Virus genome (UHGV): UHGV-1439128
Reading direction: 5' to 3' (one strand)
DNA: 18,841 bases
Source: a virus
The notes under the pieces were generated by a model. The model was not told where the DNA came from, searched no databases, and saw only the letters and a list, made by a program, of their open reading frames with translations. The translations under genes were made by a program, and so were the position numbers. Of this stretch, positions 13,126 through 18,841 are shown piece after piece (positions within the stretch are counted from its first letter, which is position 1; every line of letters starts with the position of its first letter).

Positions 13126-14430
13126 CTAAGCCGCTTTTTTCAGCGGTGACTGTTCGAAGGGAATATCGGGGAATACGTGGTTATGGACCTGCCGCAGAGC
13201 GAATGCCTGTGCGGCCTGGCTGTTCTGCTTCAGATCATCGAGCGGCGTCAGGTTGAGCTGCACCGTGTAAATATCGCCGCCCTCAATCGGTGGCATGTTC
13301 TCCAGGCGGCGCACGTCGTTACGGGACATCCAGCCGTTCTGCAGCGCACTGGTGTAGTAAGCAGCCCGTCCAGCGCTGTCGGCGCGCAGCAGGCCCTCAA
13401 CTGAGAACTCAGCAAAGAGGTCCTCTTCGCCATTCAGCAGGCAACGGGAGATCTCCTGCTCAATGTTCACCAGCAGCGGGCGCAGCGTATGGGTCAGGAA
13501 CTGGAGGTTCATTCCCTCGAGGCTCGACGCCCAGCTGCTTTGCTTTGATGTATGCCCGACCATAAACGGCGGCACGCGGAACCAGCGGCAAATTTCCTCA
13601 ATACTGAATGAGCGACTTTCCAGCATCTGGGCATCTTCAGGGTTCATGGTGACACCCTGATATTTCAGGCCGCCCTCAAGCACCATGATTTTTCCGGCGT
13701 TTTTGGAACCGGTAAACTTCGCCATATAACCGCGAAGTCTTTCCCGCTGATCTTCGTCCAGCGCATTGTCCGATGAGAGAAACCCGGAGCTTTGCAGGCC
13801 CTGTTCAAAAATCTTTGCAGCAGATTCTTCAACCGCCATCGCGGAGCCGATTACATCCCGACCCGTCCTCATCGGCATCATGCCGCAGACACCATCGAGG
13901 CCGAACCCACGGATGTGCATCAGGTTCTTTTCGGGAATAACGCGTTTCTTGCCATCCTCGGTGTACGTGTATTCCAGCCGCCCGGTATCAAGCCGCTTCA
14001 CCACCATGTTCTGGGGCAGCAGTGGCACCAGCGACACCAGCTTATTGCCGATAAACAGCTTCTCGACAAAGGCATTTCCGCGCAGGCAGATGCTGGCCAC
14101 CACCATCAACATAAAGCGCGACGGCGTCATTTCCAGATTGGGACGGCGACAAAGCACCTGGTATACCGGATGGTTCTGCGCCAGCTTGCGCGAGCCATCA
14201 GCCTGTCGGGTGTAAATCTTAACCGGCAGCGTGGACACCGACTCGCTCAGAAGCCGGACGCAGGCCCAGACGGCCGAAAGTTGGATCGCCTTATCTGCCG
14301 TGACCACCTTGCCGCTGCTGCTCGTGCCATACCACTCCTGCCAGAACGTTCCGGTAGTCAGGCTGATGGGCACGCCCAGCCAGTTGAGCAAGGCGCTTTT
14401 TACCTTGCCCGGCTGCTTACTTTTCTTCAT
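13126..14430 (-). CDS. Portal protein (HK97-family-like), 434 aa
   Basis: Start ATG overlaps the terminase large subunit stop (TGATG); size and position between terminase and protease match a portal protein. Confidence 0.8.
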   Translation of the reverse strand: MKKSKQPGKVKSALLNWLGVPISLTTGTFWQEWYGTSSSGKVVTADKAIQLSAVWACVRLLSESVSTLPVKIYTRQADGSRKLAQNHPVYQVLCRRPNLEMTPSRFMLMVVASICLRGNAFVEKLFIGNKLVSLVPLLPQNMVVKRLDTGRLEYTYTEDGKKRVIPEKNLMHIRGFGLDGVCGMMPMRTGRDVIGSAMAVEESAAKIFEQGLQSSGFLSSDNALDEDQRERLRGYMAKFTGSKNAGKIMVLEGGLKYQGVTMNPEDAQMLESRSFSIEEICRWFRVPPFMVGHTSKQSSWASSLEGMNLQFLTHTLRPLLVNIEQEISRCLLNGEEDLFAEFSVEGLLRADSAGRAAYYTSALQNGWMSRNDVRRLENMPPIEGGDIYTVQLNLTPLDDLKQNSQAAQAFALRQVHNHVFPDIPFEQSPLKKAA

Positions 14431-16187
14431 CAGAAACCTACCATGATGGGGTTGTCAAAGAATCCACTCAGGTCCTGCTGGTCGTTGCCACCGTTAACAA
14501 GCAGACGGCTCATTGCGGTAAACAGCGCCGCCGGGCCGTCAATCTTGGCTTCCGGGGTCGATTTGTTGGGGAAGATATTGTCATTACGATCCGGCCGAAC
14601 CGTCACATTCGACATCATCCAGTTCATCACCGGGTGATTGCTGTGATGGAGCCGTCCACCGTAAACCAGCGCCTCGACTTCCTTCATGGCTTCGGAGAAG
14701 TTGCGGACCGTCTGTGGAACCTCCACCAGAGGCAGGCCTTCCTCGGCAAGCGCCAGGCTGAACTGCGTGGCACTCCACGGGTCAAAACCGATTTCTTTCA
14801 GGCTTTCACCGGCCACCCACGCCTGAAGTTCTTCCTTGATCTGCGCGTGGTCTATCACATCCCCGTCGGTCAGGATGAGCTTGTCCAGTTCCGCCCATTT
14901 GCGGTAGAGCTCGGCCATCTGCCGGGAACACTTCTCAAGCCGCCCTTCCGGCAGCCAGAATTTAAAGTCGGTGTGAACGTGCCCGTCGGGAGAACGCCAG
15001 GCTTTTACCGCGGCGCAGATATCGATTTTGTTCGCCAGATCGACCCCCACCCAGAGCGGATAGGTTTTCAGTTCATGCGCCGGCGCGATGAGTTCGCATT
15101 TTTCCCACTTCAGCATGTCCATCCAGGAAGACTCCGCCGTAACCCAGATATTCATGTGTTTGGTGAAAAAGTTAACGCGGGCGGACACCTGCTCTTTGGC
15201 CTTCTTCGCCAGGCGACGCAGATCGTCCCAGCGCTTGCAGATGCCGAGGCCCGGATTCGCCTTCTGCCAGACCGTTTCATCAAAAGGGTCGTCGCCTTCG
15301 TCCAGGGTGTAGATGATGGCAAAGAAGGTATCGTCCTTAACCGCTCCTTCCACATCGCTGTTGAAACCGCGCAGTACCTTGATGGCATAATCGCGCAGCT
15401 CATAGCAGATGCCTTCTTTATTAAAGCCGGCGGTGGTAATGCCGAACAGCAGCGACTGCAGGCGCGCACCGGTTGCTGTCTCCAGCACGTCCCAGACGTC
15501 ACGGGTTTTATGAGCGTGCAGCTCGTCGACAATGCCGCAGTGGATGTTCAGGCCGTCCAGGTTGTTCGCGTCGCTGGAAAGGGGCTCGAACTTCGACGCG
15601 CTCTGCTCCTGGTAGATCGCCAGCTTGTTGAACTCAAACAGGCGGCCCAGTGTCGCTTTCGCTTTCTTCACCATGTTCTTGGCATCTTCAAACACGATAC
15701 GCGCCTGGTCTCGTGTTGTGGCCGCCGAATAAACCTCAGCGCCGCCCTCGCCATCTGCACCAGCCATATACAGGCCGACACCAGATGAAAGTGTGGATTT
15801 GGCGTTCTTACGCGCCACCTCGTTGTAAGCGGTGCGGAACCGCCGCACCATCACCGGGCGGCCGCTGCCATCGTTGCGCAGCACCACGTCGCCAGTCTCC
15901 TCGTTCACCAGCGGGATCACAAACCCATAGATATTGATGAGAATGAAAATATGCCAGTCCATCAGGTCGATGGGCTGACCGGCCTGCGCCCCCTTAACGT
16001 GGGGTATAAATTTGTAAAAATTCAGGATGTGCTGCGCCCGGGGTTCGCTGAAGAAGATCCCACGCGCCTCGCCGTTTTTCAGATCGTCCAGAAAACGCTG
16101 GCATGCCAGCCGGACATACTCACAGGCAATAATCTCCCCCGCCACGACGCGCTCGGCGTAGCGGATACCTTCTGCAACCTTGGCCAT
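14430..16187 (-). CDS. Terminase large subunit, 585 aa
   Basis: 585-aa ORF whose start overlaps the small subunit stop (TAATG); contains a Walker B-like 'GIVDELH'; canonical position upstream of portal. Confidence 0.85.
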   Translation of the reverse strand: MAKVAEGIRYAERVVAGEIIACEYVRLACQRFLDDLKNGEARGIFFSEPRAQHILNFYKFIPHVKGAQAGQPIDLMDWHIFILINIYGFVIPLVNEETGDVVLRNDGSGRPVMVRRFRTAYNEVARKNAKSTLSSGVGLYMAGADGEGGAEVYSAATTRDQARIVFEDAKNMVKKAKATLGRLFEFNKLAIYQEQSASKFEPLSSDANNLDGLNIHCGIVDELHAHKTRDVWDVLETATGARLQSLLFGITTAGFNKEGICYELRDYAIKVLRGFNSDVEGAVKDDTFFAIIYTLDEGDDPFDETVWQKANPGLGICKRWDDLRRLAKKAKEQVSARVNFFTKHMNIWVTAESSWMDMLKWEKCELIAPAHELKTYPLWVGVDLANKIDICAAVKAWRSPDGHVHTDFKFWLPEGRLEKCSRQMAELYRKWAELDKLILTDGDVIDHAQIKEELQAWVAGESLKEIGFDPWSATQFSLALAEEGLPLVEVPQTVRNFSEAMKEVEALVYGGRLHHSNHPVMNWMMSNVTVRPDRNDNIFPNKSTPEAKIDGPAALFTAMSRLLVNGGNDQQDLSGFFDNPIMVGF

Positions 16188-16684
16188 TAATCCCTCGCTT
16201 TCATGAACTCAGCCAGCGGATCAACCGCATCCGGCGTTTTGGTGCTGACCTTTGACCGGCTGGAAGGAGTCATACCAAACTCCGCTAACATCGCGCGAAG
16301 TCGCTTCCAGGCATCAGCTTTCATCATGGCTGCCGGATGCGGCTTGATCATGCGTATTTCACGCTCTTTCCCTTCATCAGCATCATCATCGCTGTATACC
16401 GCATAGGTATAACCTTCCCGATCCAGCGTTTCACAATGATGGCGGTATTCCGTATATGCCTCTACCAGCAACTCCAGAGCCCTGGCATCCAGCTGAGATA
16501 TGACGCCAATGGCATCAAGTTCTTCGGCCATCCGCTTAAACCAGTACTTCCCCTGCTTGTCGAAATGCTTGGGAACTGGGGGGACCCCTTTAGGTGGCTG
16601 CGGCTCGTTTTTGTTGATTGGTCGTTTGGATGGGTTACCCCTCACCAAACGCAGATGGGTAGGGGTTTTCGGCGGTCCTGACAT
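16187..16684 (-). CDS. Terminase small subunit (P27-family-like), 165 aa
   Basis: Small basic N-terminus (KRPINKNEPQPPKGVPP) suggesting DNA binding; immediately upstream of and coupled to the large terminase; AGGAG 10 nt upstream of the ATG. Confidence 0.7.
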   Translation of the reverse strand: MSGPPKTPTHLRLVRGNPSKRPINKNEPQPPKGVPPVPKHFDKQGKYWFKRMAEELDAIGVISQLDARALELLVEAYTEYRHHCETLDREGYTYAVYSDDDADEGKEREIRMIKPHPAAMMKADAWKRLRAMLAEFGMTPSSRSKVSTKTPDAVDPLAEFMKARD

Positions 16685-16840
16685 AATCGAAAACTCCTAT
16701 TAATCATCGGCTGGGGGACCCCAAAAAAAGTTTTCTAACCTGCGGCGATGTGAAGAAAGGCTAGGCGGCGGTCCTTTTGGCGCCCGGTTACAGGGATTTG
16801 ACCTCCCCCTCCCCTCCACATCCGTTGATGGTAATCATTA
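16685..16840. other. Candidate packaging-initiation (cos) region between HNH endonuclease and terminase small subunit
   Basis: 156-bp non-coding gap, the only long one inside the packaging module; contains a polypyrimidine tract (16801..16818, plus strand ACCTCCCCCTCCCCTCCA), a GGGGG-A-CCCC symmetric element followed by A7 (16714..16732) and a GGCGGCGG core (16764..16775). HK97-like phages place cos between the HNH and terS genes. Confidence 0.35.
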
Positions 16841-17191
16841 TCATTTGAAGCGTTCACGCCCTGTTTTCGAGCGGTGGCAAGGCCAGCACAGGCTTTCAAG
16901 GTTCGAATCATCATCGGTACCCCCATGAGCCTTAGCCTTGATATGGTCAACGGTTGTGGCCGCGACAGCGCGTCCAGTACGCAGGCAGTTCTGACACAGA
17001 TGATTATCACGCTTCAGGATGCGCGCGCGCTTGATATCCCACTTGCCGCCGTAACCACGCTCATGGCGGCTCTTACCCTGCTGGTGCTGTTGCCAGCCCT
17101 CATTTCGATGCTGCTCACAGTAGCCTGAACGGTCCGTAGTCGTACCGGGACAACCTCTCTTGCGACATGCGCGAGGGATTAACGCTGGCAT
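16841..17191 (-). CDS. HNH endonuclease (terminase-associated), 116 aa
   Basis: Cys/His-rich with an HNH signature: CxxC...DHIKAKAHGG...N...LCWPCH; sits immediately upstream of the cos-like region and terS. Confidence 0.8.
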   Translation of the reverse strand: MPALIPRACRKRGCPGTTTDRSGYCEQHRNEGWQQHQQGKSRHERGYGGKWDIKRARILKRDNHLCQNCLRTGRAVAATTVDHIKAKAHGGTDDDSNLESLCWPCHRSKTGRERFK

Positions 17192-17412
17192 GGTTCAATC
17201 CTCACGGAACCGTAGAGCGTATGCCGCTTCACTTCATCGTTCTCTGCCGTCATATAACCACGCTCATCAGGAACGGCTGCGATTACTTCGCCCTTCTCAT
17301 CGTCAGCAGTGAAGACATGCTTAACTTCAACACCATTGAGATAAACGCTATACCGCTCTTTGCTGAGGTTTATTTTTCTTCCAGGATCATCATCTAAAAC
17401 GGTTAGTCTCAT
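17179..17412 (-). CDS. Hypothetical small protein (accessory / moron-like), 77 aa
   Basis: ATG at 17412 with AGGGGA 6 nt upstream; visibly more AT-rich than the flanking structural genes; 3' end overlaps the HNH start by 13 nt; no family recognised. Confidence 0.5.
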   Translation of the reverse strand: MRLTVLDDDPGRKINLSKERYSVYLNGVEVKHVFTADDEKGEVIAAVPDERGYMTAENDEVKRHTLYGSVRIEPCQR

Positions 17413-17508
17413 TCTTATCCCCTACTTGGTATATTGATTATCTTATTCGCTTGAAGGGATAACCATTATCAAGCCCACCCGTAGATGGGCTTTGTAATGC
17501 CTACATGG

Positions 17509-17988
17509 TTAAATGATTTGCCAGTCTTCAGCCATCAGGTCGCCAATGGATGGAACCCATGTAGCAAGGCGGTTCTGTGAGTTTTTCAATACAAGCGTGT
17601 CATTGAAAGTTGGCTCGCCAACATATTCGCCAAAGCCATAACCCAACGCAGACGCTAATTTTTCCCCTTTCACGAGATAAACAAACTGGTCTTTCCCATT
17701 CCATCCTGCCCGCTGCAAACTTTTGCCCTGTTTTAACGCTTCCATGGCAAGGCCGAAACTTAGTCCTGATACCGGACGATAAGCCTTTTCGAATACTTCT
17801 TTTGGACTCCAGCTAACGTAGCCATCAAAGCGATCGGTGTTAGGTTTTCCGCCATCCAGATATTCAACCAGATAGCCTTCGTCCTCGCCGTTTTCTCCGG
17901 CAGGAAGCTGCCAGCCACGAAAATCGTTATATGCCTGTCTCGTCATCGGAAAGGCGTTAATCAGTTTTACGCCAATATGCTGGGTCAT
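17509..17988 (-). CDS. Two-domain accessory protein; C-terminal half DUF2829-like (possible Tad2-like anti-defence sponge), 159 aa
   Basis: C-terminal half contains 'AMEALKQGKSLQRAGWNGKDQFVYLV' and ends '...GDLMAEDWQII', matching my recollection of DUF2829 signatures (ALKxGKKVxRxGWNGKG ... DLLAEDWEI); lower GC than neighbours; lies in the accessory slot between the lysis cassette and packaging genes. Confidence 0.55.
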   Translation of the reverse strand: MTQHIGVKLINAFPMTRQAYNDFRGWQLPAGENGEDEGYLVEYLDGGKPNTDRFDGYVSWSPKEVFEKAYRPVSGLSFGLAMEALKQGKSLQRAGWNGKDQFVYLVKGEKLASALGYGFGEYVGEPTFNDTLVLKNSQNRLATWVPSIGDLMAEDWQII

Positions 17989-18010
17989 AAAATTACCTAT
18001 GGAGTTGGGA

Positions 18011-18035
18011 ATAAAAAACCCCGCGAATGCGAGGC
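18011..18035 (-). terminator. Intrinsic terminator downstream of the lysis cassette
   Basis: Minus-strand RNA: GCCUCGC-AUUC-GCGGGG (stem with one or two G-U pairs) followed by UUUUUUAUU; lies between the Rz stop and the 159-aa gene. Confidence 0.5.
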
Positions 18036-18069
18036 TAAATCCTGGTGTTTGTAATGACTGGCTCTTATC

Positions 18070-18213
18070 TCAACGCAGCCCCTTACCGCGCGCCAGATGC
18101 TCAACTTCAAGCATCAGCAATGAGATGTTTAATCTGGATTCACTCCAGAAGTGATCACCACCCTGTCTACAGAGCCAGATGTGAAGGATGATGAGTAAAA
18201 TTATCGCTATCAT
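18070..18213 (-). CDS. Possible small hydrophobic ORF translationally coupled to Rz, 47 aa (speculative)
   Basis: ATG at 18213..18211 overlaps the Rz stop in an ATGA arrangement; product [47 protein letters not shown] has a hydrophobic N-terminus; ends about 35 nt before the terminator. Below the ORF-track size cut-off, with rare codons and no clear RBS. Confidence 0.25.
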
Positions 18214-18677
18214 CGAAGGCATTGCGTCCTGATGTATTCCTGAAGCGTTCTCAGTGCTGTTTGGTCGCGGATAATTCCGTCCCGGATACCGAGAACGTTT
18301 CGTCCAGCAACTGGAGAGAGTTCGACGGTGGCATCATTGCCCATGCCGGAGGCGCTGGAGGTTTCGGCTGAGGATGGCACAGGGCATTTTCCTTTGACGA
18401 GCACCCGACCACCATTATCAAGCTTGCGCCGAAGAGCATCATTTTCAGCTTTCGCATCAGCTAACTCCTTCGTGTATTTATCATCGAGTGCATCAGCATC
18501 ACGCTGGCGCTGCTGCATGTCAGTAATGGTGGCGTTCGCCTTCTCCAGTTCACTGGCCTTGTTATCGCGCTGTTCTTTGTAGGCGATTGCATTATCACGG
18601 TAATGATTAACAGCCCATGACAGGCAGACGATGATGCAGATAACCAGAGCGGAGATAATCGCGGTTACTCTGTTCAT
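18210..18677 (-). CDS. Rz: Spanin inner-membrane subunit (i-spanin), 155 aa from the ATG start
   Basis: N-terminus [31 protein letters not shown]... is nearly identical to my recollection of lambda Rz ([32 protein letters not shown]...); N-terminal TM segment plus coiled-coil region; ATG at 18677 overlaps the endolysin TGA (ATGA). The GTG at 18689 used by the ORF track is probably not the true start. Confidence 0.85.
18251..18457 (-). CDS. Rz1: Spanin outer-membrane lipoprotein subunit (o-spanin), embedded in the +1 frame of Rz, 68 aa
   Basis: Entirely within Rz in another frame; AAGGAG 7 nt upstream; lipoprotein signal with lipobox LIMVVGC followed by a Pro-rich segment ([16 protein letters not shown]), closely resembling lambda Rz1. 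Confidence 0.8.
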
Positions 18678-18841
18678 TGCTGACCCCACAAACAGATTTC
18701 ACGCTCAATCTCACGACGAGTCATGAGACCTTTCCATTGCTTACCGCCAGCATATGTCCAGCGACGTAGCTGATCACATGCGCCTTTGATATCGCCCTGG
18801 TTTATTTTGCGAAGAAGCGTCGATGTTCTGAAATTGCCAGC
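18674..18841 (-). CDS. Endolysin, GH24 phage-lysozyme type, 3' portion only (5' end outside window)
   Basis: Frame open from the window edge to TGA at 18676..18674; C-terminus ...[50 protein letters not shown] resembles T4/P22-type lysozyme C-termini; directly upstream of Rz/Rz1. Confidence 0.65.

Follow-up and report, generated by a model that had tools for sequence, protein, structure and literature searches.

The 77-aa open reading frame (ORF) on the minus strand at 17179..17412 of the virus genome UHGV-1439128 (a stretch of 18,841 nucleotides, referred to here as the window) is a genuine protein-coding gene under purifying selection, and comparison of related loci shows that it behaves as optional cargo in an HK97-like/lambdoid prophage. 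Its product is predicted to be an acidic, single-domain, all-beta protein. The best explanation as a whole, to which we give a probability of roughly 0.45, is that the ORF would be an optional late accessory gene with a conditional benefit, neither a core gene nor a lysogenic-conversion gene. The features on which this reading draws are as follows.

14430-16187, minus strand: TerL, packaging module, after TerS
16187-16684, minus strand: TerS (PHROG/Pfam, with Terminase_4 among the matches for the HNH-TerS-TerL module)
16841..17191, minus strand: HNH endonuclease (Pfam HNH, 2.3e-15; PHROG 144)
17179..17203, minus strand: junction of the ORF with HNH, including a 13-nt overlap
17179..17412, minus strand: the 77-aa ORF, ATG start (ORF and translation)
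17418..17423, minus strand: Shine-Dalgarno sequence AGGGGA, 5 nt before the ATG of the ORF (read from the sequence)
17413..17470, minus strand: ORF leader, conserved with the ORF though the upstream genes differ (alignment A5)
17471..17492, minus strand: predicted hairpin with a 9-bp stem and a UACG loop, extended to 17464..17499 by CAUUA/UAAUG
17509-17988, minus strand: 159-aa protein with a C-terminal Tad2-like/DUF2829 domain (Pfam, 6.4e-22)
18210-18689, minus strand: Rz

An earlier sequence-only reading had placed a 77-aa frame here, with a good ribosome-binding site, a low GC content and an end inside the HNH frame, and all of this was borne out: the translation starts with ATG and occupies exactly 17179..17412, AGGGGA lies 5 nt ahead of the start codon, and the stop codon falls 13 nt within the HNH ORF. 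GC content is 0.462 and GC3 0.436, compared to a GC content of 0.558 for the window and values of 0.57 and 0.72 for TerL. Conservation, which that reading had proposed to check, is extensive. A word-indexed search returned 267 clusters of homologues at 90% identity, every one labelled hypothetical, from Citrobacter, Enterobacter, Escherichia, Klebsiella, Salmonella, Cronobacter, and other genera, and an exhaustive profile search returned 710 clusters at 50% identity (E <=1e-3). At 91 related loci (L001-L091), which were compared in detail, the homologues are 52-100% identical to the ORF; across the 70 distinct versions that they contain, nucleotide diversity at codon positions 1, 2, and 3 is 0.139, 0.125, and 0.436, and the median pairwise dN/dS is 0.12. 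The N-terminus M-R-(L/I)-(T/S)-V is kept among homologues, which supports the called ATG as the start. An identical gene, with a DNA match of 100%, is present in Escherichia coli ET245 (L001), where it is recorded in RefSeq as the hypothetical protein WP_059343117.1.

Presence of the gene is patchy. DNA-level homologues of HNH (16841-17178) occur in 844 of 5,426 complete E. coli genomes, versus 22 for the ORF, which was searched at higher sensitivity, such that about 97% of the genomes with the HNH family are without the ORF. This disparity indicates that the packaging module does not need it. The typical HNH prophage, exemplified by one that was inspected, carries iss in the same slot on the opposite strand. 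The claims of an accessory gene and of a position between lysis and packaging thus stand, and with them that of an atypical composition; the position is a classical cargo slot, occupied by iss in the prophage inspected.

Read along the minus strand, the genes follow one another as Rz, the 159-aa Tad2-like/DUF2829 gene, the ORF, HNH, TerS, and TerL. The ET245 prophage is the same as the window over 17100-17520, and its Q, holin, lysozyme, Rz, DUF2829, ORF, HNH, and terminase genes are co-directional. Both the Shine-Dalgarno sequence (GAGGA, 17199-17203) and the start codon (17189-17191) of HNH lie within the last 8 codons of the ORF, V-R-I-E-P-C-Q-R, an arrangement that suggests possible translational coupling. 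The 13-nt overlap recurs in 43 of the 91 loci, in which HNH follows directly. A different class of 33 loci contains a 75-aa version of the ORF, followed after 17 nt by a 485-aa glycosyltransferase (PHROG 1579), with a 196-aa glycosyltransferase (PHROG 854) second and, in many loci, HNH thereafter; a 62-aa zinc-ribbon protein is directly downstream in a further 6. Junction sequences reveal that the HNH leader supplies the codons for V-R-I-E-P-C-Q-R, with which the 77-aa form ends, and that in the 75-aa class the homologous leader codes for the C-terminus of the 196-aa glycosyltransferase instead. Since the same leader can supply the end of either gene, the overlap is best understood as a scar of cassette gain or loss. 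The 485-aa protein has a weak Pfam GT2 match, and membrane segments are not obvious on reading; the cassette is exemplified by L043 3246-5275, where, as in the 32 further loci, it lies between the 75-aa homologue and HNH. In E. coli KCJ3K291 (L144 1566-2500), two successive HNH endonuclease genes lie between the ORF homologue and TerS.

Packaging modules in which an HNH gene adjoins cos and terminase are known (PMC3592412). The ORF is physically joined to a module of this HK97 gp74 type (HNH-cos-TerS-TerL) and appears to be joined to it in translation as well, yet the module is complete without the ORF in the great majority of prophages. G/C-rich runs and an A-run (ggggaccccaaaaaaag … cctccccctcccctcc) occur in the 156-nt gap between HNH and TerS (16685-16840), which is the expected place for the putative cos site. 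Given this setting, the ORF product could be a dedicated partner or regulator of HNH and cos cleavage, for example one that tempers the nuclease until terminase is present. Such a role would be in keeping with the overlap in 43 loci, with the occurrence of the family domain between TerS and TerL in Rhodobacter phages (described below), and with the acidity of the product, as nuclease inhibitors are often acidic. However, most genomes with the HNH family manage without the ORF, two glycosyltransferase genes part the ORF from HNH in 33 loci, many members of the wider family have no HNH within 3 genes, and the overlap itself has the marks of a junction scar. We consider this role highly improbable.

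Upstream of the ORF the loci are equally varied. In 51 of 91, the homologue is directly preceded by a gene, here called X, that encodes 63-310 aa and whose end is separated from the ATG by at least 10 nt (typically 11-16 nt, as in the loci listed); examples are found in L056 (2058-2990) and L009 (2284-2985). X belongs to PHROG 17079/29765/13555, annotated as of unknown function, shows a weak match to Pfam Phage_Tail_Tip, and has no relative in the PDB. Apart from X, the cargo found upstream of the homologues comprises, among others, a KilA-N protein and DUF2560. X was considered as a universal partner of the ORF and rejected, being absent near diverged members by X profile and phmmer searches.

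The ORF could be seen as the remnant of a larger cassette, made up of X, the ORF, and the 485-aa and 196-aa glycosyltransferases, in which it would act as an adaptor or acceptor in the glycosylation of a phage or host target. The frequent association with X (51/91) and with the 485-aa enzyme (33/91) favors such a history, as do recurrent glycosyltransferase-like or methyltransferase neighbors of diverged members (PHROG 1574, Pfam Anp1, and Methyltransf_11 in 3, 2, and 2 loci, respectively). The window nevertheless has neither X nor glycosyltransferases, yet purifying selection has kept the ORF, which is intact there; the search for X near diverged members was negative, and cargo genes may simply stack in one slot. 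This explanation is a long shot.

The region between the ORF and its upstream neighbor in the window is structured. The 96-nt spacer that separates the ORF from the Tad2-like gene folds at -29.2 kcal/mol (z = -3.2), and the hairpin at 17471..17492 sits between the stop codon of the Tad2-like gene and the ORF. Stem substitutions in L007 keep the pairing intact (C-G to U-G and U-G to C-G). The hairpin is terminator-like but has a weak U-tract (4 T in 8), and it was not called by a simple terminator scan. Mosaic homology breaks at 17180 and at 17464. Homology to phage Kapi1/HZ41, about 98% identical, begins at 17464, and the segment concerned carries the Tad2-like gene. The hairpin also occurs 3′ of the Tad2-like gene in Kapi1 and HZ41, both of which are without the ORF, and 5′ of the ORF in loci without the Tad2-like gene. 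Being common to both segments, the hairpin at 17464-17499 marks the joint between two independent mosaic modules. Modules may be exchanged at this boundary sequence, and the hairpin may in addition be a weak terminator.

Leader and hairpin accompany the ORF, together with its Shine-Dalgarno sequence, behind four different upstream genes (L006, L007, L008, and L144); it is important to note that the loci sharing the leader are nearly identical in sequence. A second predicted helix joins UUAUCCCUU (17454-17462), within the leader, to the Shine-Dalgarno region AGGGGAUAA (17415-17423), a pairing that might dampen translation of the ORF. An Rfam search of 16500-18400 gave nothing meaningful. Two further elements were noted upstream: an intrinsic-terminator-like site on the minus strand at 18017-18036, in the interval that separates Rz from the Tad2-like gene, where TTTTATT comes directly after an 8-bp stem; and a 68-aa ORF (18251-18457, minus strand), out of frame inside Rz, which looks like a proline-rich o-spanin of the Rz1 type with a lipobox signal.

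At the DNA level, the 159-aa gene shares about 98% identity with the region of phage Kapi1 that holds Kapi1_043. In RNA-seq data published in 2026, Kapi1_043 was the top-expressed prophage gene in lysogens; it is Tad2-like and was proposed to be an anti-Thoeris sponge (PMC12922286). Kapi1_043 behaves as a true moron. Homologues of the 159-aa protein are annotated as an anti-CRISPR protein in some phage records. The sequence-only reading had joined this gene and the ORF into a two-gene accessory island, which the comparison does not support: apart from the window, only 1 of the 91 related loci has a Tad2-like gene ahead of the ORF (L001, with a 65%-identical allele). The comparison shows instead that the ORF is independent of the Tad2-like gene, the two belonging to separate mosaic modules that meet at the hairpin. 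The 77-aa protein itself has no match to Tad2/DUF2829 (PF11195), the model that the 159-aa protein matches at 6.4e-22.

Morons are additional genes that have a promoter and a terminator of their own and are expressed from the prophage, and the description of the ORF as moron-like holds in part. The gene is optional, both in E. coli genomes (22 versus 844) and in a neck-gene lineage described below (2 of 72 loci), and its GC and GC3 depart from those of TerL. No promoter of its own was called. A consensus scan of the minus strand over 16600-18300, which weak or non-sigma-70 sites could escape, yielded no sigma-70-like promoter, and no sequence upstream of the L003 homologue satisfied the scan either. 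A terminator is likewise missing directly after the ORF, where no hairpin separates its stop codon from the HNH start and where its 3′ end holds the ribosome-binding site and start codon of HNH. Canonical terminators are located upstream of the gene, 17-25 nt before the start of the homologue in 5 locus types (for example CCUCGC-UACG-GCGGGG followed by U8).

These observations bear on the proposal that the ORF is an autonomous moron, expressed in the lysogen from its own promoter with a benefit in lysogeny such as superinfection exclusion. Its low GC and GC3, its presence/absence polymorphism in the classical bor/iss slot, the high expression of the neighboring gene in lysogens of a related phage, and a GATAAT hexamer spotted by eye in the leader all lend the proposal some appeal. 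They are set against the lack of a promoter by the scan in both the window and L003, the missing terminator and the overlapped HNH start, the placement of terminators and hairpins upstream rather than downstream, and the operon-style packing of the locus, with X ending at least 10 nt ahead of the homologue in 51 of 91 loci and the glycosyltransferase following after 17 nt in 33. Because promoter and terminator are lacking and homologues are preceded by terminators, expression of the ORF from its own promoter in the lysogen is unlikely, and we regard the proposal as a whole as improbable. The classical lambdoid morons lambda bor/iss and Kapi1_043 share with the ORF the slot between Rz and cos, the patchy presence, and the atypical GC content. 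In contrast to the ORF, bor/iss has its own promoter and is located on the opposite strand, whereas the ORF is on the HNH strand, shows neither a detectable promoter nor a terminator, and is joined to the translation signals of HNH. Kapi1_043, for its part, is strongly expressed in lysogens.

The wider family extends well beyond this slot. Diverged members, 30-50% identical, were placed in their genomic contexts by means of encoding contigs, annotated phages, and a back-translated motif scan of IMG/VR, which gave 35 loci, 31 with true members by profile search, and which may be biased toward certain clades. Counting neighbors on the same strand, within 3 genes, and of at least 90 aa gave 139 neighbors at 38 distinct loci, dominated by morphogenesis families: tail completion/Neck1 (PHROG 169 in 9 loci, PHROG 17193 in 8, and PHROG 5 in 6), tail terminator (PHROG 179 in 8 and PHROG 176 in 4), head-tail adaptor Ad1 (5), and head closure Hc1 (5), in addition to proteins of the capsid, portal, large terminase, and major tail. 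A morphogenesis neighbor is present at no fewer than 17 of the 38 loci. The position of the family gene in the neck varies (after Hc1, after Neck1, or before Neck1), and overlaps of 1-4 nt are typical. Elsewhere, members lie in arrays of small early genes, follow primase/helicase genes, or adjoin a Vsr endonuclease. These contexts show that family members are situated mainly at gene boundaries of late operons, in the neck module or beside terminase or portal; since some are in early or replication regions, the late location is not universal.

Several individual loci illustrate the range. In the Rhodobacter phages RcRudolph (L095 3501-4037) and RcSimone-Hastad (L097 3501-4037), the domain forms the N-terminal part of a 178-aa protein encoded between TerS and TerL, the C-terminal part of which matches PHROG 7569 (unknown function). 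In the Acinetobacter phage Silvergun (L143 3381-4806), the family gene is in the neck module between Ad1 and Hc1, accompanied by a Lar-like restriction-alleviation gene and a 317-aa protein; a 347-aa homologue of the latter flanks the family gene in L133, and we take both proteins to be MuF-like. In L099 (2214-2907), the family gene precedes an ART-PolyVal (ADP-ribosyltransferase) protein.

Copies in the neck are subject to the same gain and loss. For the Hc1 lineage of L111, 80 loci were fetched, and the 72 with enough flanking sequence were counted; the family gene is present in 2. In relatives with an Hc1 that is 95-99% identical, Hc1 abuts Neck1 with no gene between them. Thus, neck-located copies are also shown to behave as optional, dispensable cargo, and neither here nor among the E. 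coli prophages is the gene kept in all close relatives that share its flanks, as would be expected of a core virion or packaging component. Alternative inserts of 323-383 nt at the Hc1/Neck1 boundary, suggested by gaps in tblastn alignments, were discounted once ORF listing revealed them to be N-terminal extensions of Neck1. A search with the L107 Neck1 protein matched only itself.

The main rival to an accessory factor acting on the host is a non-essential role in the virion or its assembly, in which the product would be a small decoration protein, a neck- or portal-associated protein, or an assembly chaperone, synthesised along with the structural proteins and possibly present in particles. 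The ORF opens the packaging module in all 91 close loci, in no fewer than 17 of the 38 diverged loci it has Ad1, Hc1, Neck1, tail terminator, TerL, or portal genes around it, with overlaps often on both sides, the two Rhodobacter phages encode the domain between TerS and TerL, and the Silvergun and L133 members adjoin the proteins that we presume to be MuF-like. This bias toward morphogenesis operons, with its 1-4 nt overlaps in the neck, could fit such a role equally well. Its weight is reduced by the scarcity of the gene among close relatives (2 of 72 in one neck lineage; 22 versus 844 E. coli genomes), by its shifting position inside the neck module, by the members in early or replication regions, and by the lack of any structural similarity between the predicted product and solved virion proteins. 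On balance a virion or assembly role is unlikely, though the moron, HNH-partner, and glycosyltransferase-partner readings are less likely than it.

The sequence-only reading recognised no family for the product, which proved incorrect. An HMM search gave significant matches of the protein to PHROG 24619 (E 1e-9, residues 1-73) and PHROG 3540 (E 2.8e-9, residues 22-76), and the same two PHROGs were matched by 10 of 10 diverged or fused members tested. As the matches are near full length and reveal no difference, the ORF protein belongs to the same family. Both PHROGs are annotated as of unknown function, in agreement with the earlier statement that function was open. The protein matched no Pfam, NCBIfam, or PADLOC model; known anti-defence families were likewise unmatched by the ORF protein in Pfam and NCBIfam, with 86 diverse family members included in the Pfam scan, and no other family was matched consistently by those members at E up to 1. 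Searches of the literature with the identifiers of both PHROGs and with WP_059343117.1 returned no paper, and none was found on the cultured phages with a homologue that treats the 77-aa gene.

Across the 86 members, D37 is invariant, and conservation reaches 90% or more at M1, R2, D9, G11, L25, G27, A36, G41, G52, G68, and V70. The consensus sequence is M-R-x-S-V … D-P-G-Y … L-D-G-x-E … T-A-D-E-E-x-G … G-x-V-x-I, with family-wide motifs comprising the N-terminal M-R-x-S ... D-P-G, several glycines, and the acidic T-A-D-(D/E)-E-x-G. The family is acidic, with a median pI of 5.0 (5.3 for the protein of the window), and R2 is its sole near-invariant basic residue. A monomer model shows the 77-aa protein as a predicted single-domain, all-beta structure (pLDDT 94.7). 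No solved counterpart of this fold and no resemblance to any solved virion protein were found for the model, which suggests an apparently new fold.

Two potential sources of functional hints were abandoned. Domain fusions were dropped, because 10 longer members, including the Rhodobacter 178-aa protein, gave no informative partner domain. Two giant apparent homologues, P0129 (3,121 aa) and P0185 (2,484 aa), with 9-11 matched stretches each, were dismissed as low-complexity artefacts: closer examination showed coiled-coil repeats in one and Calx-beta-like repeats in the other, with additive matches rather than domain arrays. A likeness to DUF3297 (PF11730), whose pattern we take to be … P-x-S-P … N-G-x-E … E-G-W-V … G-x-V-E, was also rejected, as 0 of the 86 diverse members matched it in a Pfam scan at E up to 1.

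A comparison with phage nucleotide sponges is instructive. Tad1, Tad2/DUF2829, Acb2, Sequestin, and Lockin are, like the ORF product, phage-encoded proteins of less than 100 aa with a sporadic distribution (10.1101/2025.07.12.664507). The ORF protein, encoded beside a Tad2-like gene, differs in having no Tad2 or Sequestin Pfam match. Known sponges use positively charged pockets (10.1101/2025.07.12.664507), situated between the subunits of a homo-oligomer. The acidic conserved residues of the ORF family, its low median pI, and R2 as its single near-invariant basic residue contrast with this and disfavor a nucleotide-sponge function. Lockin is reported to be absent from INPHARED (10.1101/2025.07.12.664507), a collection in which the ORF family is present. 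More generally, the reported properties of the Lockin, Sequestin, and Acb5 families do not fit the ORF family, and these candidates were set aside.

We therefore return to the reading of the ORF as an optional late accessory gene. The co-directional run of genes from Q to terminase, the absence of transcription signals belonging to the ORF, and its overlap with HNH together point to late transcription and HNH-coupled translation. The ORF would be transcribed mainly on the Q-antiterminated late transcript (holin, lysozyme, Rz, cargo, ORF, HNH, TerS, and TerL) and translated immediately ahead of HNH, probably in a coupled manner, which would make its product a late lytic protein and not a lysogen-expressed moron. 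The protein seems too small and too poor in residues of catalytic type to be an enzyme, and it would most likely bind a partner via its conserved acidic face. An accessory late factor of this kind may be useful in some hosts only, for instance where a host factor or defence active in assembly and packaging has to be countered; it would be neither a core packaging or virion component nor a lysogenic-conversion protein. The suggestion of a binding or counter-defence role draws on size, charge, sporadic distribution, and location.

A more specific and rather speculative version posits that the family is a novel class of shield proteins encoded in late operons. Made by co-translation with terminase, portal, or neck proteins, they would bind the host sensor or effector that those proteins trigger, or would be packaged for delivery into the next host. 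Avs-type sensors of terminase and portal would be an example of such a target. The odds of this version are poor; were it true, it would explain why family members hop between gene boundaries of morphogenesis operons despite being dispensable for assembly.

Taken by itself, the ORF is ordinary: an optional small phage gene, already represented in PHROGs and recorded as hypothetical in RefSeq. Its locus displays at the level of base pairs how cargo stacks between lysis and packaging, with a hairpin as the joint between modules and a gene tail rebuilt from the HNH leader. The family to which it belongs is large and widespread in phages of Proteobacteria, and its confidently predicted fold without a solved counterpart makes it a target for structural and functional work. 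Its preference for late-operon boundaries, combined with dispensability, is a pattern to test against host defences that sense structural proteins.
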